Positions 12,700 through 62,969 of a stretch of DNA of 64,000 bases are shown piece after piece. Below the pieces are notes generated by a model that did not search any database, was not told the origin of the DNA, and saw only the letters and a program-made list of their open reading frames with translations. The stretch's first letter is position 1. Each line of letters opens with the position of its first letter. Position numbers and translations under genes: made by a program. Source of the stretch: an uncultured Candidatus Saccharibacteria bacterium (GTDB lineage: Bacteria; Patescibacteriota; Minisyncoccia; Phycocordibacterales; CSBR16-119); the NCBI GenBank assembly GCA_964589975.1, contig CAZPVH010000001.1:246851-310850 (forward strand), written 5' to 3'.

Positions 12700-13036
12700 G
12701 ATCTTTTATGACACGATCAGCCAGCCAATTCAAAACTGAGACGATGAGCGAACCGAGGAATGCGGCCATAAACGTATCTACTGTCATACCCGGGATGAGA
12801 CCAGAAACAAACCAGAAGAACAGAGCGTTCAGGATAAGCAGAAAAAAACCGAGAGTAATTATGGTGATCGGAATTGTCAGAATTTTTACGACAGGCTTAA
12901 CCGCAACCTGGATAATGGTAAGCGCGGCTCCGGCGATAAGAATCGAAACCCAATCCGCCAGCTCAATTCCCGGTATCAGATAATCAGCGGCAATAACCGC
13001 GAGGGTTAGAAATATGAATCTAAAAAATAATTTCAT
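12692..13036 (-). CDS. DUF360/YvlD phage-holin-4-like membrane protein
   Basis: Four TM helices with the GxxxAxxxA pattern. The start was set to the Met at 13036, directly abutting an arm of the repeat element. Confidence 0.6.
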   Translation of the reverse strand: MKLFFRFIFLTLAVIAADYLIPGIELADWVSILIAGAALTIIQVAVKPVVKILTIPITIITLGFFLLILNALFFWFVSGLIPGMTVDTFMAAFLGSLIVSVLNWLADRVIKDRD

Positions 13037-13157
13037 CCCGTTAGAAGCAGGTCGCGGTCTTATCGCTACCAGCATATTTATCAATTATAATACTGTACTT
13101 TGAATTTAACATAATTTGATTTGTCATCCCGTGGCCGCGGCGTTTAACGGGATTCAT
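13034..13157. repeat. intergenic inverted-repeat element, copy A (left arm CATCCCGTTAGAAGCAGGTCGCGGTC, AT-rich core, degenerate/composite right arm)
   Basis: Left arm 13034-13059 abuts the ATG of the holin-like gene. Right arm 13125-13157 is a collapsed palindrome CATCCCGT..AACGGGATTCAT. Confidence 0.8.
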
Positions 13158-13163
13158 ATCCTT

Positions 13164-13616
13164 CTAAAATAATGAATCTACGGCGGCTTTAACATCGCCA
13201 CCGTCTGCCTTACCCTTAAGATCCTTCATAAGTGCTGCCATAAGCATGCCTTTCTTTGATGGATCTGTGATGGCAAGCTCCGCCTTCTTCGCTTCCGCGA
13301 GTTTCTGCACTTCCTCCATTGGCATCATCATCGGGAGAAATTCCTGAAGAATCGCGAGTTCTTTGGCCTCAGTCTCTGCAAGCTCTGGGCGTCCACCTTT
13401 GTTGAATTGGTCAATAGACTCCTTTCGCTGCTTTGAAAGACGTGTAATCACCGCTATTGCCTCTTCGTCTGTCAGCATGTCAGTCGGTTTTCTCTTCGTG
13501 GAGACAAGCTCGTTCGTAAAAGCAGTGGAAACACCCCTCATAACCAAAAGCCGAGTTTCGTCTTTGGCTTTCATGGCAGATTTAATACCCTCTTTGATAT
13601 TCTCGTGTAGTGACAT
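13164..13616 (-). CDS. yqeY: GatB/YqeY domain protein
   Basis: 150 aa. Collinear with YqeY (EAIAVITRLSKQRKESIDQFNKGGRPELAE). Confidence 0.8.
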   Translation of the reverse strand: MSLHENIKEGIKSAMKAKDETRLLVMRGVSTAFTNELVSTKRKPTDMLTDEEAIAVITRLSKQRKESIDQFNKGGRPELAETEAKELAILQEFLPMMMPMEEVQKLAEAKKAELAITDPSKKGMLMAALMKDLKGKADGGDVKAAVDSLF

Positions 13617-13656
13617 ATCACCATGTTAGCAAATTTGATAGAATGTTTCCAGATCT

Positions 13657-13770
13657 CCCGTTAGAGATCGTGGTCGCTAGTAAGAAAAAACCTTATGAAA
13701 ATATCAAATACAAATATTATTAAAATAGGCTGGATAGTCTGCGGAACGACCGCGACCTATCTCTAACGGG
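13657..13770. repeat. intergenic inverted-repeat element, copy B (in a divergent intergenic region)
   Basis: Arms CCCGTTAGAGATCGTGGTCG (13657-13676) and CGACCGCGACCTATCTCTAACGGG (13747-13770). The right arm is immediately followed by ATG at 13771. Confidence 0.8.
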
Positions 13771-14493
13771 ATGAAAAAACAAACACTTCTTTTCCTTGAT
13801 ACAGAAACGACCGGCAATCAGCCTTCCGACCGGCTTTGTCAGCTTTGCTACAAACTGGGCAACAAAATCGTAAACGAACTTTACAAGCCGCCAGTTACCA
13901 TAAGTATTGAATCCATGGCCATTCATCACATCACGACAAAGATGGTGGAAGATAAACCGGCGTTTACAGAAAGTCCTGAATACGAAGAACTAAAGGGTTT
14001 ACTTGAATCCGGCGCAATCCTCATCGCGCACAATGCCAAATTTGATATCGGTATGATTGAGAAAGAGGGTCTCACAGTTCCAACTCATATTGATACATAC
14101 CGCGTAGCGCGCCATCTCGATACCGAAAGTAAAATTCCTTCTTACCGACTCCAATACCTTCGATACTTCCTTGGGATTGTCATCGATGCCACAGCTCACG
14201 ACGCCAAAGGTGATGTTTTGGTTCTGGAGCAGCTATTCGACAGACTACTGGCAAAGATTATGGAAAAGGACGGGCTGTCCAAAGAGGAAGCAATTGAAGC
14301 GATGGTAAAAATTTCCGCCGAACCAGTTACATTTACCATGTTTAACTTCGGCAAATACAAGGGCAAGACTGTATCTGAAGTCATTGCTTGTGATCGGAAC
14401 TACTGCCAGTGGCTCCTGACTGAGAAAAAGAAAAACCCGGCTGATGAAGAGGATTGGATCTATACTCTTGAAAAACTGCTCGAAGTGAAGTAG
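13771..14493 (+). CDS. DEDDh 3'-5' exonuclease (DnaQ/epsilon-like), with a C-terminal extension
   Basis: FLDTETTG ... HNAKFD ... H..DAKGD exo motifs. Confidence 0.8.
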   Translation: MKKQTLLFLDTETTGNQPSDRLCQLCYKLGNKIVNELYKPPVTISIESMAIHHITTKMVEDKPAFTESPEYEELKGLLESGAILIAHNAKFDIGMIEKEGLTVPTHIDTYRVARHLDTESKIPSYRLQYLRYFLGIVIDATAHDAKGDVLVLEQLFDRLLAKIMEKDGLSKEEAIEAMVKISAEPVTFTMFNFGKYKGKTVSEVIACDRNYCQWLLTEKKKNPADEEDWIYTLEKLLEVK

Positions 14494-14516
14494 AGTATCG
14501 GCAAAACACAGAGCTC

Positions 14517-14981
14517 ATGGAAATCACGCCGTCCACCACCCCCCAATCGATAAAAGCTGCATTCGCAGAAGACATCAACGGTTACTGCAGACAAGGAGAT
14601 GCCTTTCGCCATAACTGCATATCCATACTAGAAGCTTTGTCGTTAAGTACGCCAGAGGTCGATTGTGTCCTTGCAGACAAGGGCGTAAAGCTCCTGGACA
14701 TCTATGACGATATCGACAAGTCAGTCGAGGCCGCTCAATTCTACATGCAAGGCGCGCATGTAAAGGCCTCAATCTTTCTGCGGCGCGATGGGACTACCTG
14801 GCTGGAGATAACAGACCTTACCTACACCTGGGAGGGTAAGCCCTTTGAGCGACAGGAGCTTCGTCTTCCTGGAACATCAATCCCAGTAAGGGGCGCAGAA
14901 GATTTTCCACGACGCCGACTGAAGCTAAATGAGCACTCTCTCAAAGTGATGATTGATCTGCTCCTTGAGACCAAGTGGTAG
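14517..14981 (+). CDS. hypothetical protein (154 aa), GC-rich
   Basis: Complete ORF followed by a GC-rich hairpin terminator at about 14985-15020. Confidence 0.45.
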   Translation: MEITPSTTPQSIKAAFAEDINGYCRQGDAFRHNCISILEALSLSTPEVDCVLADKGVKLLDIYDDIDKSVEAAQFYMQGAHVKASIFLRRDGTTWLEITDLTYTWEGKPFERQELRLPGTSIPVRGAEDFPRRRLKLNEHSLKVMIDLLLETKW

Positions 14982-15007
14982 AGCTCGGAAGCCCCGGCCC
15001 CCGCAAA

Positions 15008-15325
15008 TTAGTGCGGGGGCTTTCCTCTTGAAACATTCAAAAAAGTATAGTAAAGTGTTGCAAAAACCAAGGCATGAACACCAGAGAATACCGCTATGCC
15101 ATGAACAGGCGGCAGAATATCATCTTTGCCAGGCTTTTCTGGCAGATCGCAGTCGTTCTTCTCATCCTTGAAGCCCTTTATGGCTGACACACAGTACAAA
15201 ACCAAAACCACGATAAATGGAAAGAACCCTACCCGACGTTGACCATTGGCTGGTGAACACCCTCTTCGCAGGGGGTGTGATGTGCCTGACGCTGGCTCTC
15301 CTTGGCCTGGCGGTCTGGATACCAT
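15008..15325 (-). CDS. doubtful small membrane ORF
   Basis: One hydrophobic segment. No internal Met and a poor upstream context. Confidence 0.25.
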   Translation of the reverse strand: MVSRPPGQGEPASGTSHPLRRGCSPANGQRRVGFFPFIVVLVLYCVSAIKGFKDEKNDCDLPEKPGKDDILPPVHGIAVFSGVHALVFATLYYTFLNVSRGKPPH

Positions 15326-15378
15326 GACAGTAGGCCCCGCATTTCGCGGGGCCTTTGGTTTTCTGATAGAATAACGGA

Positions 15379-16449
15379 ATGAATCAATGGATTTTCTTAA
15401 TAATAGGATTAGTTGTTGGCGGAATTACCCTTTCCCTATTCCGAAACAAGCGCCGACCAGAAGAGACCCAGGGTCTTTTACTAATGCAACAACAACTTTC
15501 AGACTTCACTAAAAAAATTGATACCGCACTATTGGAGAATCGTCGTGACATGAACGACGCAGTTCGTTCCCAGTTTTCCGAATCTCAGAAACTTTTACGA
15601 GAAATCAATGAGCAGATGCAAAAAAATTTGGTTGACGTAACCCGCGAGCAAACAAAAGCTAACGAAGCTACACGTCAATTTATGACCATCGCTGAACAAT
15701 TAGCAAACCTTGAAAAAACGTTAAAACACCAAAAGCAACGTGGTAATTGGGGAGAGGCGTCATTAGAACTTATCCTCCAAAACACATTAGCCCCCGGTCA
15801 ATACACAATGCAGTACGAATTTATCAATAAAGAAAAGGTCGATGCTGTGATTACAACCAAGGAGGGATTAATACCAATTGACGCAAAATTTTCTCTTGAT
15901 AACTATAATCGCATATCGCAAGCAACAGACGAGCGTCAACGTGAAGAGCTTGAAAAAGAATTTAAATCAGATCTTAAAAAACGTATTGATGAAACAGCAA
16001 AATATATTAGACCAAACGAGGGCACTCTGCCTTTTGCGTTTATGTATATTCCAGCTGAAGGAATTTACTATGATTTATTAGTTGGCGAGGTCAATAAAGC
16101 AAGTATTAATGCGCGTAATCTTATTGATTATGCCTACAATGACAAAAAAGTAGTAATCGTTTCGCCCACAACTTTCATGGCTTATTTACAATCGGTTTTA
16201 TATGGCTTTAAAGCATTTAAAATTGAAGAGGGTGCAAAAGATATCATTAAGAGAGTAAATGAACTTGGAAAACATTTAAAAGCCTATGAGGATTATATGG
16301 GTAAATTAGGAAACGCGATCGGTACAACTGTTAACCATTACAACTCTGCATACAAGGAACTTGGCAAAGTAGACAAGGACGTTACTCGAATCACGGGCGA
16401 CACTCCAGGCATAGAGCCAATATTAATAGACAAACCATTCGTTGAATAG
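15379..16449 (+). CDS. rmuC: DNA recombination protein RmuC
   Basis: N-terminal TM, long coiled coil, C-terminal RmuC nuclease-like domain. Confidence 0.85.
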   Translation: MNQWIFLIIGLVVGGITLSLFRNKRRPEETQGLLLMQQQLSDFTKKIDTALLENRRDMNDAVRSQFSESQKLLREINEQMQKNLVDVTREQTKANEATRQFMTIAEQLANLEKTLKHQKQRGNWGEASLELILQNTLAPGQYTMQYEFINKEKVDAVITTKEGLIPIDAKFSLDNYNRISQATDERQREELEKEFKSDLKKRIDETAKYIRPNEGTLPFAFMYIPAEGIYYDLLVGEVNKASINARNLIDYAYNDKKVVIVSPTTFMAYLQSVLYGFKAFKIEEGAKDIIKRVNELGKHLKAYEDYMGKLGNAIGTTVNHYNSAYKELGKVDKDVTRITGDTPGIEPILIDKPFVE

Positions 16450-16482
16450 TAAAAACCCCCTCGCGGGGATTTTTACTATTGA

Positions 16483-17289
16483 TTATTTAACTGTAGGCAT
16501 TTGTTCCTTCCTTACTTTCTGAGCGTCGCCGCCGAGAGTTTGCGCAAGGATGAAATCCCTGTCGTTCTTTGAGCCTGTGTATTTGATGAGTCCGTCCATG
16601 TTCGTGTCAGTTCCGAAGTATCCTTCGACGACATTATTTGGATTTTCCTCGCCAACCATAGTGAGGATCGCGTCTTTGTCATTGTTCACTCCGACATAAT
16701 TTACAACGCTATTCCAATTAGCATTTCCTGCCCAGAGAACCTGTACGCCATCAACAATCTTTACAGCTTCTGTTCCATAGGCTGGCATAGTCGTAAAGTC
16801 ATAACCAGACTTGAGAGTGAGAGGCTTGGCCGTCATGACTGCCAAGTGATTTCTGTGGCGAATAGAGATGTAGTAATTCGGTCCGGAGAGTGGAACAGAA
16901 ACCGGAGAAACTCCGTCCGCGTCCACGACATCGCCATCTGCTTGGACAAGGGCCGCTCGAGAGTAAACTACAGGCGTTCCAGTCTTCCTAGCGCGAATTT
17001 CCAGCACTACCCAATCGATGATCGCGTTTTCACCAGTAGTAGCAAAGACTGAAGAATCGACAGTCTTCTGTTCTCCGGAAGTGAATCGGTAACCAAGCTC
17101 TGTATATGGCTCCTTGGTTGGGACCAATTCTGCCATCCGGAGGCTGTCTTTCATAAGACCTGTTTCGGCATTATAAGCGCCGCCAAGCATTACTCTTATC
17201 GGGAGAGCTGTTTCTTGTCCTGCGCCCACCCCGCCTGGAGCCGCCAACATGGCAATACTGAGGACTAGACTTACTATATTGCTGTTCAT
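16483..17289 (-). CDS. secreted protein with D-x-D-x-DG calcium-binding-like repeats
   Basis: Signal peptide and repeated NNDKD / TDTNMDG / SKNDRD motifs (dockerin- or thrombospondin-3-like). Confidence 0.45.
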   Translation of the reverse strand: MNSNIVSLVLSIAMLAAPGGVGAGQETALPIRVMLGGAYNAETGLMKDSLRMAELVPTKEPYTELGYRFTSGEQKTVDSSVFATTGENAIIDWVVLEIRARKTGTPVVYSRAALVQADGDVVDADGVSPVSVPLSGPNYYISIRHRNHLAVMTAKPLTLKSGYDFTTMPAYGTEAVKIVDGVQVLWAGNANWNSVVNYVGVNNDKDAILTMVGEENPNNVVEGYFGTDTNMDGLIKYTGSKNDRDFILAQTLGGDAQKVRKEQMPTVK

Positions 17290-17312
17290 AATATAAGAAT
17301 TAACGTTTATAA

Positions 17313-17900
17313 CTATCTGACTATTTCAGTAACGTCGATCTTGTACCAATCTTGCCATTCTGTCAAGGCAGATCCCTTTGTCTCGCGCATCTTAACCGTG
17401 ACTGTCTCTAGTTCTTGGAGTGCGACAAATTCCCTCTTTACACCCACTGCCTCGCAGACTGCGTATGAAAGAGGGATACCCTCCACAGAGGAAGTGTCAA
17501 TAAAATCTGTCTCTTTGCAGGTTCCGGTGTGAACTCCGAGCTTGTACGGCCGGCCGAAGGCAATAGCGCTGCCGTTTCGGGTAAAATCAGCAAATTCCAT
17601 CTTAAGCCAGGTTTGGCCTGTGCCTGCGACTTCAGGACTCGTTGTATCGAAAATCCATTTAACTCCCTGAAACTCGTAGGTGTAGTCACCCGCCACGACC
17701 TGCTGCGCCACATGAAGCGCGCTTTCTTCATTTTCAGTTTGAGCCGGCACAGTCTCCTCCGGAGTTTCTGCAACTGGTTCTGCGGGCTTTGAGCGAAAGA
17801 AAATAATAAGAGCGATAGCTACAACAACTACAACCCCGGCGATAATATAATTCTGATAAGGCTTCCTGTCTTCCGTCTTCGCGTTATTATTTTCAGCCAT
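17313..17900 (-). CDS. membrane-anchored extracytoplasmic hypothetical protein
   Basis: One TM helix followed by a soluble domain. Confidence 0.5.
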   Translation of the reverse strand: MAENNNAKTEDRKPYQNYIIAGVVVVVAIALIIFFRSKPAEPVAETPEETVPAQTENEESALHVAQQVVAGDYTYEFQGVKWIFDTTSPEVAGTGQTWLKMEFADFTRNGSAIAFGRPYKLGVHTGTCKETDFIDTSSVEGIPLSYAVCEAVGVKREFVALQELETVTVKMRETKGSALTEWQDWYKIDVTEIVR

Positions 17901-18005
17901 AGTGGTTTTATTTTACCATGGTGGGAAATGTTGACCAAAACCTTGTCAAAAACCACTTTTAATGTTATTGTCCGCTCAAACCTGAACCCTAAAAACCAAC
18001 GTACC

Positions 18006-19262
18006 ATGTACGATCCATACAAAGACTTCAAGCGCTTTACCCTCCCGAATGGCGTGACAGTTTATCACTATTACGCCGACCGCCCTTGGGTCATGCTTCG
18101 AGCAAATGTGCATGTGGGGTGGAAAGATGACCCCGTCGGTCAAAGTGGCCTTGCGCATTTCGTCGAACACTTGGTCAGCAAAAATATCGAGGGCCACGAC
18201 TACCAAGAGACTCGAGACTTCTTCAAGCGTAATGGTGATCCGGTCAACTTTGGAGTAACCTTCTACGAATGTACTCAATATGGCTTTCGTATCATCTACA
18301 ATGAAACGAACTTTGCCAAAGCCCTCGACATCTTTGGACTGATGCTACTCGGAGCAAAACTTGAAAACCAAGTTGATCTTCAGCGAAGTGTGATTAACCG
18401 AGAATTTTATCGTGATCATACACCGCGACATGGTGTCGATTGGCGGATGGAAGTATGCCGCAGCATGTTCAAGGGGCACTTTCTGGAAAACCACACGACA
18501 GGACTTGGTATTCCTGAACACTTCATGGCAATCACAAAGCAATCGCTTCAAGATTTCTATGACAAATACTATGTGCCGAGCAACATCAGTATAGTTGTCT
18601 GCGGTGGTATCGAGAGAGAAGATCTAGAGAAACGCCTGCGGGACAGCATGCTCGGGATGCTCGGAAATAATCTAGGTGGCAGAAATGGATTACCAGAGAC
18701 TCCGTGGAAAATTGTTCGTCCCGAGACAAACCTCATAATCAAACACCTCTCGGACGTTCACAAAGATAAAGTGGAGCAGACGACCTATACTGCAACATGG
18801 GCGTTACCAACTAGTCTTCGTGAAGAAAATGTCGGTATCACCACAAGAGTGTTACGTCATCTACTCATGAAGGAAATTCGTGAGAAGCTTGGCGGTACGT
18901 ACGATGTCAGTGTCAATTACGCCTGGTGGCAAGACATGATGAGTCTTTCCATACAGACGAAGGTCGGCGAATCAATGACTGACAGTGTAGACATTATGGT
19001 TCGCAAATGCATCGATGATCTGCGAATGTCTCAGGATGTCTTTGACCTTGAAAAGGAATCACGACTCATCAGATATTCACTGATTGAACACTGGCCAAGA
19101 AAGATCTGTGATGTGGCTATCAAGGATATCGGTAAGCATCAACGCATCGTGACCCTGATGGAAGATCTTCGAGATGACATGGCCCTTACTCACGAAGATA
19201 TGTGTGTGGTGGCTGATCATCTTTCGGTCGAGCAACAGTGTACGCTCATCATCACGCCTTGA
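18006..19262 (+). CDS. M16-family zinc peptidase (pitrilysin/insulinase-like)
   Basis: Inverted zinc motif HFVEH. Start reset to MYDPYKDF at 18006, downstream of a TTGTCA-N17-TATTGT promoter. Confidence 0.8.
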   Translation: MYDPYKDFKRFTLPNGVTVYHYYADRPWVMLRANVHVGWKDDPVGQSGLAHFVEHLVSKNIEGHDYQETRDFFKRNGDPVNFGVTFYECTQYGFRIIYNETNFAKALDIFGLMLLGAKLENQVDLQRSVINREFYRDHTPRHGVDWRMEVCRSMFKGHFLENHTTGLGIPEHFMAITKQSLQDFYDKYYVPSNISIVVCGGIEREDLEKRLRDSMLGMLGNNLGGRNGLPETPWKIVRPETNLIIKHLSDVHKDKVEQTTYTATWALPTSLREENVGITTRVLRHLLMKEIREKLGGTYDVSVNYAWWQDMMSLSIQTKVGESMTDSVDIMVRKCIDDLRMSQDVFDLEKESRLIRYSLIEHWPRKICDVAIKDIGKHQRIVTLMEDLRDDMALTHEDMCVVADHLSVEQQCTLIITP

Positions 19263-19274
19263 AACACATGAACG

Positions 19275-19312
19275 ATAAAGACCGCCAGCAAGCTGGCGGT
19301 CTTTCTCTTTGG
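19275..19312 (+). terminator. rho-independent terminator
   Basis: GACCGCCAGCAAGCTGGCGGTC hairpin followed by TTTCTCTTT. Confidence 0.6.
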
Positions 19313-19319
19313 GTTCTTC

Positions 19320-22214: not shown

Positions 22215-22289
22215 GGCCCTATCGTCTAACGGTTAGGACGGATCCTTCTCAAGGATTAAATCGGGGTTCGATTCCCCGTAGGGTCACCA
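22215..22289 (+). tRNA. tRNA-Glu (anticodon CUC), CCA encoded
   Basis: Cloverleaf folded by hand: 7 bp acceptor stem, 8 nt D-loop, anticodon loop TTCTCAA, T-loop TTCGATT, 3' CCA. Confidence 0.85.
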
Positions 22290-22344: not shown

Positions 22345-23691
22345 TCAGGAATCTTTATTATTTTTATAATCAAGCCCTTCTCTCTTTATGTTGTTTCGCC
22401 TTCTGGATAGTGATCTAATTTGTTTCTCAATTTTAATATTTTTGAACATTGATAGACTTTTTTTCAGATAATTACTTTTTATCTTGCTTCTCTTACGTAA
22501 GACCGGTTTAAATTTATAGGAAGTATTACCTAACATTTTTTGTACCTTATTTTCCTGCCTGTCTCGCAATTTACCTAAACTTTTCTTCCTCATTAGAATT
22601 TTATCTCCATAGAATTCAAAACCTAAATAATCGATATATTTTCTTCTTTTTAACTTACCATCCCCATCTGTTACTTTTGTTATTATATTTTTATTTAAAT
22701 AAGAAATATTCGTCTTGCCTGGCTGAATCTTGAGATGATTCGTTTTAATTTTTTCTAATAAGAATGTATAAATTTCTTCCTTTTCTGCTTCGGAACAGAC
22801 AATAAAAATATCATCACTATATCTTCTATAAAAAGAATCGGGGAAATTTTTTTTGAACGCCAAATCAAATTCATACATATATATGTTTGAAAATAGTCCA
22901 CTTATAGGACTGCCTTGTGGAATACCAATATTACTTTTACTCTTTTTTATGTAATTTTTTAGTTTTAAATAAACATTTGGGGTACCTTTTTTATTTCTTA
23001 GAACATGCCTTATGTCTGTTTTTTTAAAATCTGGATAGTAATTTATATATTTATATCTTGTAAGGGATTTGTAAATTTTATAAATTAGTGGACCTAACCT
23101 ATTTACAGATAAAATATTTTCTAGATTATTTTTTAGTAAAATATGATTTAATTCATCAAAAAACTTTGTTATATCTGCAGTTATTACTACACATGACTCA
23201 TGTTTTTTTATTTCTTGGAATGCCTCTGATGCAAAATGAATATTGCATTTATTTTTTTGCGGATTCTCTAATGTTGGTACTTTTCTATAAGCAGTTATGG
23301 ATCTATCTATATGATTTGCTTTTATTTTTTTATCATAAAACTCATATACCAGATAATTATAGTAACTGTAAATATACGAGTCGAGATTAGATGCATACAT
23401 TATCGGTCTTTGCTTTTTACTTTTTTGTTTTTCTCTATAAAGACAGCTTTTTATGCAATTTTTCCCAAGCTCAAGTCTTCCACAGTTACATTCTTTGCGT
23501 CTATATCTTATTTCTATGTTGACTCTTTTTATAAAAGGCAGAAATTGATGATTAGTTAAATTTCTAATCGATTTTTCAATTTTTTTTATGTCTTCGTCTC
23601 TATTAAGATCGATTTTGACATCAAAATGTTTATACATTTTGATGTCTTTTTTCTCCTTTAATCCCTGTACCCATTCATCAAACTTATACAT
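22345..23691 (-). CDS. reverse transcriptase (retron/Abi/unclassified-group type), very AT-rich
   Basis: RT motifs ADITKFFD (A/3), GIPQGSPISGLFSNIYM (B/4), YRRYSDD (C/5), KTNI (6), YLGFEF (7). N-terminal about 100 aa extension with CxC-x8-C-x3-C. Basic C-terminal tail. Confidence 0.85.
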   Translation of the reverse strand: MYKFDEWVQGLKEKKDIKMYKHFDVKIDLNRDEDIKKIEKSIRNLTNHQFLPFIKRVNIEIRYRRKECNCGRLELGKNCIKSCLYREKQKSKKQRPIMYASNLDSYIYSYYNYLVYEFYDKKIKANHIDRSITAYRKVPTLENPQKNKCNIHFASEAFQEIKKHESCVVITADITKFFDELNHILLKNNLENILSVNRLGPLIYKIYKSLTRYKYINYYPDFKKTDIRHVLRNKKGTPNVYLKLKNYIKKSKSNIGIPQGSPISGLFSNIYMYEFDLAFKKNFPDSFYRRYSDDIFIVCSEAEKEEIYTFLLEKIKTNHLKIQPGKTNISYLNKNIITKVTDGDGKLKRRKYIDYLGFEFYGDKILMRKKSLGKLRDRQENKVQKMLGNTSYKFKPVLRKRSKIKSNYLKKSLSMFKNIKIEKQIRSLSRRRNNIKREGLDYKNNKDS

Positions 23692-23696
23692 ATGTT

Positions 23697-34256: not shown

Positions 34257-34814
34257 TTATTTCTTAACAAATAACTTTACTTGCGCCGGACGGATAATAG
34301 TTTTCTTCGTCTTGTATCCTTTCTGAACGATCTCCGCTATATGATGATCCTGCGACTCGTCTTCTATCTCAATTTCTTCGACAATATGATGAATTTCTGG
34401 ATTGAATTTTTCTTTTGCGTCTTTTATTTCTTCCACTCCGTTGTTCTCGAGGATCTTGCAAAGCTGGTTGTAAATATATTCCACACCCTTACGCCAATTT
34501 TCTGAGACCGATTCCCACGAAGCTTTATTCTTCATCGCCATCTCGAAACTGTCGAGCACGGGAAGCAATTCTTCGATGAATCCTTCGACAACATAACCCT
34601 TTAGGTCTTTCAGTTGCTCGCCGGAATTTTTCTGGAGGTTCGCATAGTCAGCGAGAGCCCTTTGCCAACCATCAAGATTTTTCTGAGATTCATCCTTGGC
34701 ATCTTTTAGGTCTTGCCGAAGCTTCTTTATCTTGTCCGCACCTGTGGATTCCCCCTCCTCCTCGGTAAACTCGATTTCTGGTTCAAAATTATCATCATTT
34801 TTGTCTAATTTCAT
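34257..34814 (-). CDS. grpE: nucleotide exchange factor GrpE
   Basis: Coiled-coil N-terminus and a GrpE C-terminal beta domain. Confidence 0.85.
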   Translation of the reverse strand: MKLDKNDDNFEPEIEFTEEEGESTGADKIKKLRQDLKDAKDESQKNLDGWQRALADYANLQKNSGEQLKDLKGYVVEGFIEELLPVLDSFEMAMKNKASWESVSENWRKGVEYIYNQLCKILENNGVEEIKDAKEKFNPEIHHIVEEIEIEDESQDHHIAEIVQKGYKTKKTIIRPAQVKLFVKK

Positions 34815-34928
34815 CCCTTTAGAGATAGCAAACTTTTAGTTTGCGTACCCCACCAAACTTAATAATAATTTTAACTATTCCTCAAGCTCCCACTTAGATT
34901 TCTTCGGTAATCTGACATCTCTAACGGG
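34811..34928. repeat. intergenic inverted-repeat element, copy G (degenerate)
   Basis: Left arm CATCCCTTTAGAGATAGC overlaps the grpE ATG. Right arm ATCTCTAACGGGAC lies at about 34915-34928. Confidence 0.55.
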
Positions 34929-35025
34929 ACAAGTGACTTAAGTATAGACTAATTTATAATTTTGACAAGTATTTCACGTACGTGGAAAACTTGCTAATAC
35001 CAATACTATATGCTAAATTTTATAC

Positions 35026-51516: not shown

Positions 51517-52053
51517 CTACAGACTCATTAATTTCTTGAACACTTCAAAAGTCGCGCGGGTATCGGCCAGAGCCGTATGCGACTTTTCGTTATGAATACC
51601 GAAATATTCGCAAAGGCGATGGAGATTGAATCGTTCGGCGCGTGGATCCTTGAAAAGCTTGGCGTAGGCCATGGAGATTGTGTCGAGTTTGGCATAAAAC
51701 ATTTCATTTTTCATACCAGTTTTCGTCAGAGCGCGTTCGATGAATGAGTAATCAAATGTTACATTCTGGGCAACCATGATCGCGCCGTCGGACTTTTCTG
51801 AAAATACTTTCATGGCCTCAGAAAGAGTGTTGGCAAAAATCCACTGAGCTTCATCATATCCATTCACTTTGAGCGCCGTCGGCTCCGCATTTTCTATATG
51901 CTCCGGTTTTATCTTCATCTCACGCTCTTCGATAACGGAAAAATTTCCCTTATCCTGTTTTACCAAGATGTAAGCGAGCTCAATGATCTCATGCTTCTCA
52001 GGATCAGTTCCCGTAGTCTCAACGTCGACAAAAATCAAATTCTCGTTTCTCAT
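51517..52053 (-). CDS. DEDDh 3'-5' exonuclease (DnaQ-like)
   Basis: FVDVETTG ... HTALADT motifs. Its ATG is fused to an arm of repeat copy C. Confidence 0.8.
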   Translation of the reverse strand: MRNENLIFVDVETTGTDPEKHEIIELAYILVKQDKGNFSVIEEREMKIKPEHIENAEPTALKVNGYDEAQWIFANTLSEAMKVFSEKSDGAIMVAQNVTFDYSFIERALTKTGMKNEMFYAKLDTISMAYAKLFKDPRAERFNLHRLCEYFGIHNEKSHTALADTRATFEVFKKLMSL

Positions 52054-52167
52054 CCCGTTAGAGGCAGATCGCGGTCTTGTCGCAATCTGCCTTAGTTATA
52101 TTTTTAATTTTATTTTGATTTGAATTCATAATTTTAAATTTTTACAGCGGTCGTGGCCTCTAACGGG
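52051..52167. repeat. intergenic inverted-repeat element, copy C
   Basis: Arms CATCCCGTTAGAGGCAGATCGCGGTC and GCGGTCGTGGCCTCTAACGGG. The core has TTCAAA-N18-TATAAC on the minus strand. Confidence 0.8.
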
Positions 52168-52174
52168 ACGCATA

Positions 52175-55590: not shown

Positions 55591-55724
55591 ATTGTTTCTT
55601 TATCTTATAAATAGGCCCCAAGAGGCCGTAACTTCTTAATTTGCTAGTAGCCCTATACTATCATCAATACCTTTTCATGTCAAATGTCTGTCAAGACCCT
55701 GTCAATAAACCACCCATCTTTGAC

Positions 55725-56816: not shown

Positions 56817-56820
56817 AAAA

Positions 56821-57375: not shown

Positions 57376-57490
57376 CCCGTTAGAAGCAGGTCGCGGTCTT
57401 TACGCGATCTGCCATGATTAGATTTATAATTGTTACTTTTATTGTCATAAATTTGAATCCTTACTCACGCGACCGCGGCTTCTAACGGGA
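57373..57490. repeat. intergenic inverted-repeat element, copy D
   Basis: Arms CATCCCGTTAGAAGCAGGTCGCGGTC and GCGACCGCGGCTTCTAACGGG, with about 70 bp of AT-rich core. Confidence 0.85.
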
Positions 57491-57569
57491 TTGCATAAGT
57501 AAGAGAATTCTAGCAGAAAAGTCTTTCGAACAAAAGAAGAGCCCCGACGCAACGCCGGGGCCTCGTTCT

Positions 57570-58103
57570 TCATGCTGCGGCCATCCTAATGGAGTAGCTT
57601 CCTTTGCCGGAAATAGCCATCCCGTACAAACCATCCTCGAGATATACGAGAAGTGTCGTATGAAGCGAAACAAAGAACACCTTGCCGCCACTAACGTAGA
57701 CCGAGAGAATCGCTTTTCCGTCCTCGGGCATAAAAGCAGTGTCGCTGTCTTCGTAGATCTCAGCCATGAAGGTCAGAAGCGGGTTTTCCGCCGTAAGCTT
57801 AAAAAGCTCTGACAATCTGTCCTGAATATCTTGTTCGGTCTCACAACCAACCAGCAGTTCGGTCTGCATTTTGATATCCTGGGCAAGATAATAGATCTCC
57901 TGCGAATCATCGTCTTGATACTGGAAGATCCTGACAGGCACCTCGGGCGAATCTTCCTTCTCTTCGTCTGATACGAGATACTGCCCTTCCGTAAGACCTT
58001 GCAGATTTTCTGCGACGAGAGATGAGGCCACGGTATAGAAATATTCTGTCACAACCCGTGACTGCTCTTCGCCTTCCTTGAAGCTAACAGTGAGCTTTTT
58101 CAT
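57570..58103 (-). CDS. acidic hypothetical protein (177 aa)
   Basis: Complete ORF. A hairpin plus T-run lies just upstream. Confidence 0.4.
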   Translation of the reverse strand: MKKLTVSFKEGEEQSRVVTEYFYTVASSLVAENLQGLTEGQYLVSDEEKEDSPEVPVRIFQYQDDDSQEIYYLAQDIKMQTELLVGCETEQDIQDRLSELFKLTAENPLLTFMAEIYEDSDTAFMPEDGKAILSVYVSGGKVFFVSLHTTLLVYLEDGLYGMAISGKGSYSIRMAAA

Positions 58104-58159
58104 GTCGGAGCGGGTTTGGTTTTAGAAAAGCATACGCCTCAGAGAATTTTTGTCAAAAA

Positions 58160-58196
58160 GAAAGAGCCCCAACGTACGAATGTCGGGGCTCAGTGG
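58160..58196 (-). terminator. rho-independent terminator (minus strand) ending an upstream ORF-poor region
   Basis: GAGCCCCGACATTCGTACGTTGGGGCTC followed by TTTCTTTTTG on the minus strand. Confidence 0.55.
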
Positions 58197-58832
58197 AGAC
58201 GTGCTCCATTATCTTCTTTTTGATCTTTCTCTTGGAAAATCCGAGGAGGGTTCATATATCCTCTTCTAATTTCCTAGGTTTCAGCAAGAGATTCTCTAAC
58301 GTCCGCGAGATCAGTCTGCGGGTAGACACTTTCCGATCTGAAAATTCTGCTTATCAAGTTCTAGAACCTCGATCAGCATAGCTTTCATCACGTTCCGTGA
58401 CACATGGTTCGCGGGGATCTTATCCACCGAGACCAAGGCTTTCTATCGTATACCTTTCATGAAGGGTGCGGTGATGTGTGTGAAGAAACGTTTCGAGTTG
58501 CTTCACATCGGGTTAGTGTGGATGATTAGACCACTTTCCAGATTTTGTTCTAGGTTGTCTGGTTTTGATATGCGTCTTTGCCGCTTGGTTGTAGGACGCT
58601 ATGCCTACAAACCTGCGCACAAGGGTCCACCGGTCCCGACGACGTTCTCTGGTGGGGCTTTAGATGTTATTTTGTTCACCTGTGATTAACCTAGACTGAA
58701 CTGACTAAGCGTTCGCACAGCTGAGCTGTGAAGGAACTGTGGGAAATAGCTTAGCACAAAGGCACGGACTTGTCAAGTCTCTTCTTTTATGTCCTTATTT
58801 TAAGCCTTTTTTATAAATCCCCTCTCCGCGGA

Positions 58833-58903
58833 GCAAAATATATATTTCTGAATTCGAGGACCTAGCGAAGCGCTCCCGCAGGACTCAGAAATATATATTT
58901 TGC
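58833..58903. repeat. perfect 19-bp AT-rich inverted repeat with a 33-nt loop
   Basis: GCAAAATATATATTTCTGA ... TCAGAAATATATATTTTGC, directly downstream of the holB stop. Confidence 0.7.
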
Positions 58904-58907
58904 GAAG

Positions 58908-59573
58908 CTATATTGTTACCGCCAAATGCTCCAAAAGTATCTTCGGGCTTGATCCTTGGTCGCCAATGTATTTCTTGGCCAGATATATATCCTCTACTTT
59001 CTTCTTCTCTGGCATCACCACTCCCCTAGAAATCTCCTTTTCAAGCTCCCCCAGAAACCGTAGTGACTTATCTTTCAAAAGCGGCTTTGATTCCATGTCA
59101 GTAAATTTTTTTATAAAGTCCAGGCGCTCCTTTATGCTTCCAGCCAGGAATTTCTTCGCGTCTTTCTTTAGTTCATCTTCGGCGGCAAACTCACCTATTG
59201 TCGCCATAAGCCGCGAGCGAAGCGTTGGGAAAAGTTTCGTCGCGTCCGGCATGAGGAGGAAAAATGTAACTCCGGGTCGAGGCTCTTCGAAAGCTTTGAG
59301 AAGCGCGTTTTGCGCCGGATATGAGAAAGCGAGAGTCTTTAGGATAATGAATCTCTTTTTAGAATTTATATTCATCGCCTCGGACTCGAAGTCTTTGATC
59401 TCGCGGACATGGTCAATGAGGAGATTCTCATAATCCTTCTCAAAAATGTCAGCATTCCCTGTTGTGAGGTAGCCGAGCTCGTCCAGGGACTTCGCGAGTT
59501 CTTTGTAAGACAAATGAATATCACCCTCTATTAGATACGCATGGTGATTTATTCCGTTCTTTAAGATATTCAT
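58908..59573 (-). CDS. holB: DNA polymerase III delta' subunit-like clamp-loader protein
   Basis: AQNALLKAFEEP motif. Start reset to MNILKNG at 59573, fused to an arm of repeat copy E. Confidence 0.7.
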   Translation of the reverse strand: MNILKNGINHHAYLIEGDIHLSYKELAKSLDELGYLTTGNADIFEKDYENLLIDHVREIKDFESEAMNINSKKRFIILKTLAFSYPAQNALLKAFEEPRPGVTFFLLMPDATKLFPTLRSRLMATIGEFAAEDELKKDAKKFLAGSIKERLDFIKKFTDMESKPLLKDKSLRFLGELEKEISRGVVMPEKKKVEDIYLAKKYIGDQGSSPKILLEHLAVTI

Positions 59574-59688
59574 CCCGTTAGAAGCAGGTCGCGGTCGTTC
59601 CGCAATCTCCTTGGCCATAATTTATAAACTTTATATATATTTTCATATTCGGTTTTTTAAATAAATCGCGACCGCGGCTTCTAACGGG
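59571..59688. repeat. intergenic inverted-repeat element, copy E
   Basis: Arms CATCCCGTTAGAAGCAGGTCGCGGTC and CGCGACCGCGGCTTCTAACGGG. Confidence 0.85.
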
Positions 59689-59697
59689 AAGAATCTT

Positions 59698-60711
59698 TTA
59701 TCGTTTAGAAATGATGGACCTCTTGTATGTATCCAAATGCTCGAGCGCGACTCCGGTCCCGCGGACGACGCAGTAGAGAGGCTCGTCGGCCAGACGCGCC
59801 TTCACGCCGATTTTCTGATAGATGAGTTCTGGAAGATTTCTAAGCATGGATGATCCGCCTGTGAGTATTATACCGTGATCAATGATATCCGAGGCAAGCT
59901 CCGGCGGAGTTTCCTGCAAAACGTCTTTGATGGCTTTGATGATTGCTTTGAGTTCTTTGTCGATCGCTTTCACGATCTCGTTTGTCGTAACCTGCGCGGT
60001 CCGTGGCAGACCCTGAACAAAGTCGCGGCCTTTGATGGTGGCAACGAGCGGCTCTTCCATCATGACGGCGCTTCCAATTTTTATTTTTACTTGTTCGGCC
60101 GTGCGATCACCGATAGCCAAGTTAAAAGTCTTCTTTATATAGTCGGCAATAGCCGCGTCGATCTTGTCCCCCGCGACTTTCACAGAGTTAGAAGCAACAA
60201 TTCCTCCGAGCGAGATCACCGCGGCGTCTGTAGTACCTCCACCAATGTCGACAATCATGTGTCCTTCCGATTGATATATAGGAATGCCAGCGCCAATGGC
60301 GGCAAGGATTGGCTCTTTAACAATGTACGCGTTCTTCGCGCCGGCCTTTATCGTCGCTTCCACGACGGCACGGCGTTCGGTCGATGTCACTCCGGCCGGA
60401 ACAGAAACCATCACGTCTGGCTTCCATAGACTGAATGATCCGAGCGCGCGGCCGATGAAGTATTTGAGCATTGCTTCCGTCATGCGGTAGTCCGCGATCA
60501 CGCCGTCTTTCATTGGCCTGTGAGCAATGATATTGTCCGGCGTTCGGCCGATCATGTCTTTGGCCGCCTGACCGATAGCCAAGATCTTATTGTCCTGCTC
60601 CGAAACCGCCACAACGGATGGTTCGTTTAGAATTACTCCCTTACCCGGAACAAAGACCAAAATATTAGCTGTGCCGAGGTCGATTCCAATTTTCTTTGAG
60701 AAAAAATCCAT
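59698..60711 (-). CDS. mreB: rod shape-determining protein MreB
   Basis: GIDLGTAN and the actin-fold motifs. Start reset to MDFFSKK. Confidence 0.9.
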   Translation of the reverse strand: MDFFSKKIGIDLGTANILVFVPGKGVILNEPSVVAVSEQDNKILAIGQAAKDMIGRTPDNIIAHRPMKDGVIADYRMTEAMLKYFIGRALGSFSLWKPDVMVSVPAGVTSTERRAVVEATIKAGAKNAYIVKEPILAAIGAGIPIYQSEGHMIVDIGGGTTDAAVISLGGIVASNSVKVAGDKIDAAIADYIKKTFNLAIGDRTAEQVKIKIGSAVMMEEPLVATIKGRDFVQGLPRTAQVTTNEIVKAIDKELKAIIKAIKDVLQETPPELASDIIDHGIILTGGSSMLRNLPELIYQKIGVKARLADEPLYCVVRGTGVALEHLDTYKRSIISKR

Positions 60712-60804
60712 GTGGGAGGAGTATAGCATTTTTAGTTCGAGGCTATATATGCTTGACTTATTTAAATTTTTATGTTACTATATAGATAAAACAAATTCAA
60801 CCCC

Positions 60805-61011
60805 ATGGTATTACCCACCGAAGCGGAAACGAAAGAGGCACTTGGCGGAATCAAATCCATGATGAAGGGAGTGATCGCCGACGAAGAAATGTTCGCTCTG
60901 TCGGCACAGATCATGATGAAAGCCTATAAGGCTCTGGTAACGGCTGGCTTCAGTAAACGACAAGCGATGCAAATCGTTGCTGGAAAAGGCTTCACCACCG
61001 GCATCAAGTAA
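60805..61011 (+). CDS. hypothetical small protein (68 aa)
   Basis: Followed by a strong terminator. Confidence 0.4.
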   Translation: MVLPTEAETKEALGGIKSMMKGVIADEEMFALSAQIMMKAYKALVTAGFSKRQAMQIVAGKGFTTGIK

Positions 61012-61017
61012 GTACAA

Positions 61018-61058
61018 CCCCGCCCGAAAGCCGCCCGGCTTTCGGGCGGTTTTTCTTT
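61018..61058 (+). terminator. rho-independent terminator T1
   Basis: CGCCCGAAAG-CCGCCCGG-CTTTCGGGCG followed by a T-run. Near-identical to T3 at 62200-62240. Confidence 0.75.
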
Positions 61059-61089
61059 TATTGACTTTAGACAGAATATTATGTAATGT

Positions 61090-61464
61090 ATGCAAAAAAC
61101 AAAATCCACGCACATGCTCATTGGAACCCGCGGACCAGCATTTTCGCTCATCGAAAGAGCCTACATGGATCGAGAAGCCGGCAAGCTGGTGTCGTTCACT
61201 ACTCGTCTCAAAAGCAAGCAAAAGAAAAAGGCTTTGATTGAGGACAAGCCCGGTGAGCCCTCAGACGTGACCTTCCTTGCCAAAGTGAATGGCATCAAGG
61301 ACCATGAGAACGGCTACGCCACGCTTTATGTGAGCATCGACTCAGGTCTCGGCAAGATCACGCAAAGTACAGAGATCCATCATGAGATCCGGACCGGCAT
61401 TGGCCACTGTGAAGTACGACCAGTACTGCGGCCAAAAGAAGATCTGGTCTCAACACATGCCTGA
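61090..61464 (+). CDS. hypothetical protein (124 aa)
   Basis: The TTGACT-N17-TAATGT promoter abuts the first ATG, so the true start may be the Met at 61114. Confidence 0.4.
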   Translation: MQKTKSTHMLIGTRGPAFSLIERAYMDREAGKLVSFTTRLKSKQKKKALIEDKPGEPSDVTFLAKVNGIKDHENGYATLYVSIDSGLGKITQSTEIHHEIRTGIGHCEVRPVLRPKEDLVSTHA

Positions 61465-61475
61465 CCAATATTCAA

Positions 61476-61510
61476 GGGCCGCCCCAGAAATGGGGCGGTT
61501 TTTCTTTATA
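61476..61510 (+). terminator. rho-independent terminator T2
   Basis: CCGCCCCAGAAATGGGGCGG followed by TTTTTCTTT. Confidence 0.7.
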
Positions 61511-61618
61511 TTCATAATATTCTTATACTTGACTTTTTGCTTAATCTATGGTAGTATATACTCAGAAACTCAAGCTAGTTCACCCTCCAAGCATTGCTTG
61601 GTCAAAACCCAAAACAAC

Positions 61619-62191
61619 ATGAAATTCTGGCCCGGACTGATTTTGATCATCGTGGCAGCCTTCGCAATAGTGGCGGGCTTAGTGCTGACAATCGGCTACT
61701 TCATCGAGGACGACCCCACGACGACCCTCCCCTTGCTTGATATAACCATTGGCGGGATACAAGTCGTCATTACTGGTGTCGCCCTTATTGGTCTCGCTGT
61801 GTTCTTGTTTGCTTGTGTTGTCGGCTATCCTTGGCCTTGGCGCCGTAAGTGCAAGTGCGACACCTGCGACAAGACTACCCGCAACGAGAAGAAAGACGGG
61901 GTGGCAATATGTGACGATTGCCAAGAGAAAAAAGACAACGAAGAAGCGCTGGCCAAGTCTGACTTGGTACCGGCGCTATGCTCGGCCGATGGAACAATGA
62001 TGGAACGCAAGTTCCTGCGTGGCATCATCGTCAATACCTGTCCGGCCTGCAAAGGCTCCTGGCTCTATGAGAAGCAAGTGACTGAGCTCAAAGAAAATAT
62101 GAGCAACAGTCGCGAGTCCTCAAGGATAGCTGGTATGAGTATGGGCTTCTTCATCGGAATGATGCTCGGAATGCAGCTTGGTCGGCACTAG
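61619..62191 (+). CDS. membrane protein with a cytoplasmic Cys-rich zinc-ribbon domain (zf-TFIIB-like CPxCxGxW)
   Basis: Two TM helices, CKCDTCDK, CDDC and CPACKGSWLYEKQVTELKE. Start reset to MKFWPG after a TTGACT-N17-TAGTAT promoter. Confidence 0.5.
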   Translation: MKFWPGLILIIVAAFAIVAGLVLTIGYFIEDDPTTTLPLLDITIGGIQVVITGVALIGLAVFLFACVVGYPWPWRRKCKCDTCDKTTRNEKKDGVAICDDCQEKKDNEEALAKSDLVPALCSADGTMMERKFLRGIIVNTCPACKGSWLYEKQVTELKENMSNSRESSRIAGMSMGFFIGMMLGMQLGRH

Positions 62192-62199
62192 CCGATAAC

Positions 62200-62240
62200 A
62201 CCACCCGAAAGCCGCCCGGCCTTCGGGTGGTTTTTCTTTT
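62200..62240 (+). terminator. rho-independent terminator T3
   Basis: CACCCGAAAG-CCGCCCGG-CCTTCGGGTG followed by a T-run. Confidence 0.75.
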
Positions 62241-62281
62241 CCACTTCTTGTGCTATAGATGAGTCAAAACCACCGCTCACA

Positions 62282-62791
62282 ATGGAAGAACCAATAAAAG
62301 CCGTGCCTTGGCACCACGACATTTCTGTCTCAACTGCAGGCCGGATCGAAGATCTGACCGGAATTCCCCGGGAAGGCAGCCGGATCTACAACTGCGTCGA
62401 CCGCTTTAAGCTCGACTGCTGGCACCCCGGCATGCCGAACTTTCGGCCGCACTTGGTAAGCCTCCGGAGGCTGTCGCCGAAGACCGTTCGCGAAAAGCTT
62501 CTGTCTCTTGGACTCGCGCCGGCGACGCTTCGGCAGTACTTTTCCTTGAGGCAAAGCATTGAGTCCCACAAAGACCCGATGGAAAGCCGATCGTTCGTCT
62601 ACGTCGGAGAATTTATCCAGGACTCGATCGGTTCAAGCTGGTGGAAGACTTTCAGTTTCTTCCAAAAAGGAGATGAATACGAAGGGATGCTCTCTTGCGT
62701 CTTCACCCACGATGACAGCTTCCTGAACCCGAGCAGACTGGACCGGGATTACAACTTCCTCCACTACGCCGTGGCGGTACCAATCAGATAA
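62282..62791 (+). CDS. hypothetical protein (169 aa), GC-rich
   Basis: Complete ORF. Confidence 0.4.
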   Translation: MEEPIKAVPWHHDISVSTAGRIEDLTGIPREGSRIYNCVDRFKLDCWHPGMPNFRPHLVSLRRLSPKTVREKLLSLGLAPATLRQYFSLRQSIESHKDPMESRSFVYVGEFIQDSIGSSWWKTFSFFQKGDEYEGMLSCVFTHDDSFLNPSRLDRDYNFLHYAVAVPIR

Positions 62792-62855
62792 AAAGCCCTT
62801 CATTATTGAGGGGCTTTTTGTATGGAGCCGTTTCGGATAAGATGAAGACATGAAT

Positions 62856-62969
62856 CCCGTTAGAGATCTGGTGTTAGGATCCAAAACTGCCCATAAATAA
62901 TATGATCGATAATTATAATGAAAATAGTAGACGAGATACGCAAAATAAAATTTTGCTATCTCTAACGGG
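62856..62969. repeat. intergenic inverted-repeat element, copy F
   Basis: CCCGTTAGAGATC ... GATCTCTAACGGG (13 bp perfect inverted repeat). The right arm is followed directly by ATG at 62970. Confidence 0.75.

Follow-up and report, generated by a model that had tools for sequence, protein, structure and literature searches.

The 64,000-nt stretch of DNA analysed here, called the window below, comes from an uncultured Candidatus Saccharibacteria bacterium and holds seven copies, A to G, of a repeat of about 115 bp. This repeat is a miniature inverted-repeat transposable element (MITE), a non-autonomous mobile DNA element of the ultra-small Patescibacteria (Candidate Phyla Radiation, CPR), which inserts exactly at start codons and duplicates them. 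In nearly all surviving copies the target ATG is the start codon of a gene, which thus keeps an intact start directly after the element. The features that define the element, namely insertion exactly at start codons, duplication of ATGNN, a hairpin at the gene-proximal end and a short reading frame ending at a TAA in the arm, were not in the original prediction, a note made from the letters of the window. As to how such insertions are tolerated, we infer from sequence that the element is made harmless by translational coupling, in a host that makes almost no use of Shine-Dalgarno sites, and we would put the probability of this reading at about 0.5.

All seven repeats that the original prediction had listed in the 64 kb were confirmed at their positions (Table 1), and the sequence CCCGTTAGA occurs 12 times in the window where 0.38 occurrences are expected, a number reached in none of 100 shuffles. 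A mismatch-tolerant search for further arms in the window returned the degenerate arms of A and C and otherwise only hits at chance level. Counted from the T of TCCCG through the final G of CGGG, each of the seven copies is 115 or 116 nt long. Oriented by the adjoining gene, A, C, D, E and F lie on the minus strand and B and G on the plus strand, and the gene-side arm ends ...TCTAACGGG directly at the ATG, except in C, which reads TCTAAAGGG instead and is probably a decaying copy. The CAT that precedes the left arms is the start codon of a minus-strand gene, reverse-complemented. The genes that follow encode a holin_4_2-like membrane protein, two RNase T/ExoX-like exonucleases, GrpE, ribosome recycling factor (frr), HolB and a PriA-like protein, and five related copies share 66-79% identity among themselves. 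In four copies (A, D, E and F) the far arm follows the 3' end of a same-strand upstream gene, and the arm pair is therefore not simply two diverging leaders. A conserved 5' leader at divergent promoters was rejected, since four window copies lie between co-directional genes with the far arm toward the 3' end of the upstream gene.

Some details of the first description had to be revised. Its subfamily letters conflict with its own list of copies: the GAAGCAGGTCGCGGTC type comprises the copies listed at 13034, 57373 and 59571, with a variant at 52051, and the GAGAT type those at 13657, 34811 and 62856. The sequence said to be shared just inside the left arm by C, D and E is a CGCAATCTGCC-like stretch that is present at 52051, 57373 and 59571, not at 34811. 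Copy A, taken for one and a half joined elements, is a full copy of 116 nt with a mutated distal arm (TCCCGTTAAAC), and the repeated TTCAT beside it is a target-site duplication (TSD), not a joined second element.

The evidence for insertion comes from the window together with fetched loci (given below by our own handles, L and a number), which provided 138 elements for counting contact with an ATG and 140 oriented elements for counting duplications and frames. Exactly one arm lies against an ATG in 126 of the 138 (91%). At the far end a direct repeat of the gene's first bases was found in 107 of the 140, over 5 nt in 95 elements, 4 nt in 7 and 6 nt in 5. Of 98 elements, 89 have the same two bases after the ATG at either end, where 39 would be expected and 1000 shuffles never gave more than 51. 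When the target is rebuilt, a preference appears within the duplicated bases only (position +4, A 0.67 and G 0.21; position +5, A 0.81 and G 0.15), and ATGAA, ATGGA and ATGAG together account for ~88% of targets compared with ~42% of window gene starts by a hand count. A small number of elements lie at near-target, non-start sequences (ATAAA, ATAAG and ATCAG). The tolerated targets are housekeeping genes such as frr, holB, priA, grpE and those for tRNA synthetases and ribosomal proteins. A regulon was considered and rejected; the downstream genes are diverse, and gene families recur about as often as under random choice, with frr alone over-represented. As a separate observation, ACTTG instead of ATGNN stands directly before TCCCG in the window (34930-34934) and in three loci, all in different genomes (L027, L032 and L060), and related odd flanks are ACCTG in L189 and CCCTG in L080.

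The gene frr is an insertion hot spot, and 80 frr loci from metagenomes served for a comparison with empty sites. Most of them have no element and show a leaderless form, TGnTATAAT, then 6-9 nt, then ATGCAATACAAT. An element stands at the frr start in six of the 80 loci and in window copy E, directly after ATGCAA in L135, L143, L149 and E, with the duplication ATGTA in L186 and L187, whose copies are identical, and with no duplication in L189. These elements belong to different subfamilies and occur in both internal orientations, and the native -10 box still stands before the left ATG copy. In the closest relative, L124, with a recycling factor 74% identical, holB and frr are both leaderless and neither carries an element. 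In the 789 kb of DNA ascertained by frr alone (L124-L203), six of seven elements are at the frr start itself; the seventh, in L187, precedes a thioredoxin-reductase-like gene.

A scan of species-representative genomes with the pattern TCCCGTTAGA, a gap of 83-110 nt and TCTAACGGGA matched at least 119 stretches outside the window, in assemblies from across Patescibacteria. The pattern fixes the ten outer bases of the arms, whose invariance across genomes is for that reason partly a matter of ascertainment. Among the matches listed, almost every one comes from an assembly under the label Saccharibacteria, Paceibacterota/Parcubacteria and subgroups, Levyibacteriota, Kerfeldbacteria, Kazan and similar; in a few cases the label is Omnitrophota, Elusimicrobia or Proteobacteria, and these may be real, mis-binned or chance. 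Elements outside the window measure 90-130 nt; in the window as elsewhere, the sole open reading frames (ORFs) span 15-42 codons, and there is no transposase gene inside. The scan pattern had zero matches among 2.9 million viral contigs, and annotated plasmid and phage records gave no match to the element. A full-text literature search with the motif returned unrelated primers only, and no relevant work on MITEs or on leaderless translation in Patescibacteria was found by such a search. Against Rfam 15, the whole window at gathering threshold gave a tRNA and nothing else, and element E at E-values up to 1 gave only a chance-level match to RsaJ (14 bits). The earlier claim that the sequence matches no described family has therefore held in literature full text, Rfam, plasmid and phage records.

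Within the genomes L091 and L098, copies are 93-98% identical to one another, and in L088 and L017 an element has inserted in tandem into an earlier duplication. Taken together, the ATGNN duplications, the empty orthologous sites, the differing subfamilies at one site, the near-identical intragenomic copies and the tandem insertions establish mobility, and thereby bear out the MITE-like element that had been offered as one of several alternatives; of the checks proposed there, TSDs were found, as were empty sites at orthologous positions in relatives. Variants of the element were also seen. A related element with ends TCCCGTAGTA...TACTACGGGA and the same ATGAA duplication stands between two standard copies in a tandem array (L017, 6018-6153), which suggests a wider family of start-codon-targeting elements. 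Short versions of 65-78 bp have the same ends and position (L043 4316-4391, L048 2170-2243, L050 160-237, L075 2236-2304, L151 4908-4981 and L161 16075-16139), mostly with a matching ATGNN duplication, which is missing in L075; a coupled frame occurs in only two of these six and is uninformative. A longer version of 192 bp is present in L099 (858-1049). Two read-archive (Logan) assemblies, SRR16481186/7, are identical in sequence to the window, and each has a contig break within the proximal arm of copy F (59569-59598), with an overlap of 23-30 nt; in the SRR16481187 pair it amounts to 30 nt, a k-mer less one base, the pattern that a repeat would give. Since the assemblies break there, further copies with the same 30-mer should exist elsewhere in the genome.

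All members of the family share an inverted repeat of 13 nt, TCCCGTTAGA-RRY. Its positions 11-13 are free, mostly R-R-Y, and appear as 12 covarying triplet types which are complementary between the arms in ~94% of elements. Arms of about 23 bp, as first described, hold for the window's main subfamily only, and there with a 4-nt bulge; an RNase III-sized stem is possible in read-through transcripts, whereas the family-wide stem has just 13 bp. Just inside the repeat, at one end only, lies a stable local hairpin, its sequence varying by subfamily with the pairing kept (GGAAATC/GATTTCC, GGTCGTC/GACGACC and CAGATCGCG/CGCGATCTG). The element is polar: over the 140 elements the hairpin end points toward the gene in 92, away from it in 15 and is ambiguous in 33, and it hence faces the gene in 92 of 107 resolvable copies. 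Folded as RNA, the sense strand of the gene gives the stabler hairpin (mean difference -1.36 kcal/mol, p = 1.5e-4) and has 103 G-U pairs, compared with 45 for the opposite strand. This bias may point to a function in the transcript or in a single DNA strand. An asymmetry of G-U versus A-C between the two arms was also considered and dropped, the mismatches being too few to judge. In the predicted read-through RNA of six window copies the two arms pair in a stem with z-scores of -3.5 to -7.9, and the A of the AUG is in its last base pair.

The short reading frame is the feature on which coupling would depend. An intact arm sets a TAA 7 nt upstream of the A of the gene's start codon, leaving a gap of 4 nt (UAA CGGG AUG). 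In all window copies but C, six of the seven, a frame started by ATG runs up to this TAA or ends in an ATGA that overlaps the gene start, and in an alignment five related copies keep a frame of 22-23 codons in which E and F are shifted by exactly one codon relative to A, B and D. In the counts that follow, kinship between copies is disregarded and each is taken as independent. A frame of 15 or more codons with its end at the arm TAA or at ATGA was found in 80 of 140 elements, where core shuffles gave a mean of 21.8 and a maximum of 33, and in 60 of the 92 hairpin-proximal elements against 14.9 expected. From the duplicated ATG the frame is open across the full length of the element in 32 of 107 cases, over 34-42 codons; 21 of these end at the TAA, 11 at ATGA, and none is fused to the gene. 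Over ten codons of the A/T-rich core, hairpin-proximal elements have 46 stops in the TAA frame versus 115 and 102 in the other two, whereas hairpin-distal elements show no difference between frames. ATGs cluster 76-85 nt before the gene's ATG, and 28 of 42 of them are in the TAA frame. A conserved upstream peptide was rejected as an explanation, since the peptides vary between subfamilies, which have in common no more than an open frame and the point where it ends.

A Shine-Dalgarno-like 4-mer precedes 3 of 77 window genes, compared with 7 at random positions; for a -10-like box whose end is 5-9 nt from the start, the figures are 21 of 77 and, at random positions, again 7. The boxes suggest leaderless mRNAs, and because Shine-Dalgarno sites are scarce and -10 boxes near starts are enriched, the host would appear to rely on leaderless starts and other Shine-Dalgarno-independent routes. 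Several other window genes have A/C-rich leaders such as AAAACCAAA. The Patescibacteria literature that we found by search does not mention leaderless mRNAs. At the copy F locus the native leaderless holB promoter seen in L124 is absent and the element starts 8 nt past the mreB stop; expression of holB there would need read-through or a promoter carried by the element. The outward promoter proposed in the original prediction is plausible though weakly supported: several foreign copies have a clean leaderless-type TGnTATAAT box 6-9 nt before the internal ATG; the window copies have weak boxes only.

Combining these data, the proposed mechanism would run as follows. Insertion at the pentanucleotide ATGRA duplicates usually 5 bp, sometimes 4 or 6, on either side of an element of ~115-120 bp, after which the native start signals would serve the left ATG copy, with the real start ~120 nt off and paired in a stem. 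The ribosome would start at the left ATG copy, the native leaderless promoter or ribosome site having been kept, or alternatively at an internal ATG some 22-23 codons upstream of the gene in the unstructured A/U-rich core. With the frame held open to the arm TAA, or to the ATGA overlap with the gene start, the translating ribosome would read the proximal arm and melt the arm-arm stem that buries the gene's AUG, then end at the arm UAA and reinitiate at the adjacent AUG. Termination-reinitiation is reported to need overlaps or very short gaps, and a gap of ~20 nt to abolish it nearly (PMC10666635); with its gap of 4 nt or overlap of 4 nt the element lies within this published range.

We extend the proposal more tentatively, at just short of an even chance, to a pan-Patescibacteria transposon lineage specialised for start codons and equipped with a built-in expression adaptor for essential genes. 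Such an adaptor would combine a ribosome landing pad or promoter with the short frame and the terminal-repeat stop 4 nt before the duplicated ATG, and would let the element precede the housekeeping genes named above without silencing them. In places the element may have replaced the native promoter, as at the window's holB. A bolder version, offered as a candidate, is that target choice is aided by the initiation region of leaderless genes, beyond the pentanucleotide alone. Direct sensing of a leaderless transcription start is weakened as an idea by operon-internal targets with Shine-Dalgarno-like sites and by the near-target insertions that are not at starts.

Several points weigh against the reading of a start-codon-targeting MITE kept harmless by coupling. 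The p-values overstate independence because the copies are related to each other; still, the open-frame pattern recurs in many subfamilies and genomes despite that kinship. No in-frame ATG precedes the arm TAA in 60 of 140 elements, and 60 of 140, window copy C included, have no coupled frame of at least 15 codons. Coupling cannot be obligatory, since hairpin-distal copies precede genes without the frame. Where a promoter within the element is invoked, a scan with the sigma-70 consensus found no sense-strand site in the window elements, and position and spacing statistics for an internal promoter were diffuse; it is not convincingly supported. As regards mobilisation, no autonomous copy or transposase with these ends was found in the 1.7 Mb of fetched loci, searched for arm pairs 140-4000 bp apart, which yielded a single pair of 192 bp, and duplications ranging between 4 and 6 nt in length are unusual if one DDE-type enzyme makes them. 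It also should be considered that intergenic ATGRA sites that are not starts should be tolerated yet are rarely hit, and preference for ATGRA combined with selection may not suffice. Finally, the open frame could be a legacy, without any selection, of a parent insertion sequence in which the transposase gene may have stopped within the terminal repeat.

The last point leads to the alternative that we rank second, although we regard it as doubtful: the same mobile element would be purely selfish, its short frame a relic of the parent transposase gene with first codons fused to last and the stop in the terminal repeat, and the genes behind it would be expressed by read-through or an internal promoter and not by coupling. 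It accounts equally well for mobility, the elements with no coupled frame and the tolerated hairpin-distal copies speak in its favour, and the decayed left duplications of window copies fit neutral drift at the 66-79% identity of the five related copies. It is less at ease with a frame-specific shortage of stops that spans many unrelated-looking subfamilies in >100 genomes, with frames whose start, the duplicated ATG, lies outside the element and which are open throughout without ever fusing to the gene, and with five diverged window copies that retain the frame and differ by a whole codon.

The predicted folding brings in another possibility, a domesticated RNA switch in which the distal arm would have two alternative partners: the proximal arm, so that the AUG is hidden, or a CGGGA box inside the element, which leaves the AUG free and the proximal arm partly in the local hairpin. 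This box, 20-40 nt from the distal end (for example window 13122-13127 in A, and in L006 and L143), occurs in 14 of 92 elements against 1.5 expected and could compete with the arm-arm stem for the distal arm. The strong predicted arm-arm stems, the local hairpin's 3' strand that is also part of the extended arm, the bias of G-U pairs to the sense strand and the presence of the element at frr in many lineages would all suit a switch. However, only a minority of elements have the box, the A/T-rich cores are diverse with no conserved ligand- or protein-binding core, the downstream genes are functionally unrelated and most orthologues lack the element. A switch is possible for some subfamilies; as a general account we find it improbable.

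We regard as very unlikely an invertible promoter (inverton), whose recombinase would flip the core between the inverted repeats and so toggle the downstream gene. The inverted repeats around an A/T-rich core with -10-like boxes, the two internal orientations found in nature and the break of two independent assemblies at the copy F arm would be in keeping with it, but direct ATGNN repeats and empty sites indicate insertion and not a fixed switch, the targets are housekeeping genes, orientation is biased 92 to 15, the contig break is explained by the k-mer-minus-one overlap in a repeated arm, and no single locus was seen in two orientations. Equally remote is the paired operator of a global DNA-binding regulator, a pair of vertically inherited inverted sites ~100 bp apart around a promoter, which the original prediction had entertained as an operator cassette: outer 10 nt identical across very distant lineages and a tight window spacing of 115-116 nt would fit, but those ten bases were preset by the search pattern, solo sites are not above chance, and the duplications, empty sites and differing subfamilies at one site are left unexplained.

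Table 1. Coordinates of the seven window elements (A to G), their parts and their reading frames (uORF, upstream ORF)
Feature	Position	Strand	Remark
Element A, 116 nt	13037-13152	-	directly upstream of holin_4_2-like gene, ATG at 13036
Element A, proximal arm	13036-13048	-
Element A, distal arm	13140-13152	-	degenerate, TCCCGTTAAACGC
Element A, distal TSD copy ATGAA	13153-13157	-	9 nt past yqeY stop codon
Element A, proximal TSD copy	13032-13036	-	gene start
Element A, frame, 38 codons	13041-13157	-	duplicated ATG through whole element to arm TAA
Element A, in-frame internal ATGs	13127 and 13112 (23 codons)	-
Element B, 115 nt	13656-13770	+	upstream of ExoX/RNase T-like exonuclease gene, ATG 13771; duplication not recognisable
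Element B, local hairpin	13732-13762	+
Element B, uORF, 23 codons	13695-13766	+	ends at arm TAA
Element C, 115 nt	34815-34929	-	upstream of grpE, ATG 34814; proximal arm mutated to TCTAAAGGG; ACTTG in place of ATGNN at distal flank; no uORF
Element C, hairpin	34823-34850	-	
Element D, 115 nt	52054-52168	-	upstream of RNase T-like exonuclease gene, ATG 52053
Element D, distal flank ATGCG	52169-52173	-	agrees with start ATGAG at 4/5 positions
Element D, hairpin	52062-52092	-
Element D, uORF, 23 codons	52058-52129	-	ends at arm TAA
Element E, 115 nt	57376-57490	-	upstream of frr (ribosome recycling factor), ATG 57375
Element E, hairpin	57385-57413	-
Element E, distal TSD copy ATGCAA	57491-57496	-	gene start also ATGCAA
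Element E, uORF, 22 codons	57380-57448	-	ends at arm TAA
Native leaderless-type box TGCTAGAAT	57507-57515	-	before element E distal duplication
Terminator of gene upstream of element E	57540-57562	-	ahead of distal duplication
Element F, 116 nt	59574-59689	-	upstream of holB, ATG 59573; starts 8 nt past mreB stop; duplication absent
Element F, hairpin	59582-59612	-
Element F, uORF, 22 codons	59578-59646	-	ends at arm TAA
Element G, 115 nt	62855-62969	+	upstream of priA-like gene, ATG 62970
Element G, distal TSD copy ATGAA	62850-62854	+	native -10-like box TAAGAT at 62838-62843, 6-nt spacing
Element G, hairpin	62934-62961	+
Element G, uORF, 23 codons	62902-62973	+	ends in ATGA overlap with gene start
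Element G, alternative uORF, 15 codons	62918-62965	+	ends at arm TAA

Other features of the window deserve brief mention. A reverse transcriptase of 448 aa is encoded at 22345-23691 (-), its best match being the antiviral Drt2 family at 286 bits versus a curated cut-off of 390, in a 30% G+C island adjoining a tRNA-Glu (22215-22289, +); the region looks like an acquired defence island. As a mobiliser of the elements this enzyme was rejected, being of a Drt2-like defence type with nothing that ties it to them. Between E and F, a segment of ~590 nt (58160-58752, -) has a promoter-like site, TTGACA-17-TAAGCT, and an intrinsic terminator, with no ORF of 80 aa or more, no Rfam match and a fold z-score of -2.3; upstream of it is a perfect 19-nt inverted repeat (58833-58851 / 58885-58903). 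The larger segment 57491-58907, including an ORF at 57570-58103, is absent from L124, where holB abuts frr.

A transposon that lands precisely on the start codons of essential genes and is nevertheless tolerated would represent a new kind of target choice, and if coupling holds, the element would be a portable module for translation starts free of Shine-Dalgarno sites. Patescibacteria make up a large share of bacterial diversity, and their translation initiation is poorly described. The recurrent insertion at frr and the promoter replacement at holB suggest that the element reshapes expression in very small genomes. There is also a practical side, as gene finders may extend genes through the element or mis-start them (the longest holB ORF begins within copy F), and the 13-nt end offers a simple marker toward the enzyme responsible.

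By kind the element is a MITE, and its start-codon target and stop within the repeat set it apart from the known families compared here. Correia elements (CREE/NEMIS) of Neisseria are ~100-150 bp long with a 26-bp repeat and a TA duplication. The resemblance lies in size, terminal inverted repeats, a short duplication, many gene-adjacent copies and a presence that varies between relatives; co-transcription would in both yield a hairpin, and the core may hold promoter-like boxes. In contrast, the ends here, TCCCGTTAGA, are unrelated, the duplication is ATGRA and not TA, insertion is at the start codon itself, the repeat has its stop 4 nt before the restored ATG with an open frame, and the host range is Patescibacteria. 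REPIN and REP sequences make no target duplication, each REP is palindromic with a conserved GTAG, and they lie mostly after genes. They share with our element two inverted arms of ~20 nt, a spacer of ~70 nt and a total of ~110 bp, and a long persistence within lineages is conceivable for both, whereas here duplications are the rule and a local hairpin is found at one end only.

Rickettsia palindromic elements, and the byp elements with T4 gene 60, are mobile inserts that are translated or bypassed. Here too a small insert at a coding region is tolerated by the translation machinery, with matching codons at its edges, although it lies outside gene and protein with no evidence of hopping, and the match at the edges takes in two more bases, as a duplication would. 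Integron attC sites span 57-141 bp, with RYYYAAC 5' and GTTRRRY 3', and follow the cassette ORF. Size, an imperfect inverted repeat, conserved outer cores resembling GTTRRRY/RYYYAAC and a covarying variable interior are similar, but the order of the cores is reversed (GTTAGA left, TCTAAC right), and our element precedes housekeeping start codons instead of following cassettes and has target duplications. From termination-reinitiation coupling as described elsewhere, the arrangement proposed here, read from sequence only, would differ in that the upstream frame is on a mobile element and its peptide is not conserved; in common with it are a stop 4 nt before the ATG or an ATGA overlap, within reported working distances (PMC10666635, PMC6728339), and a host without Shine-Dalgarno sites.

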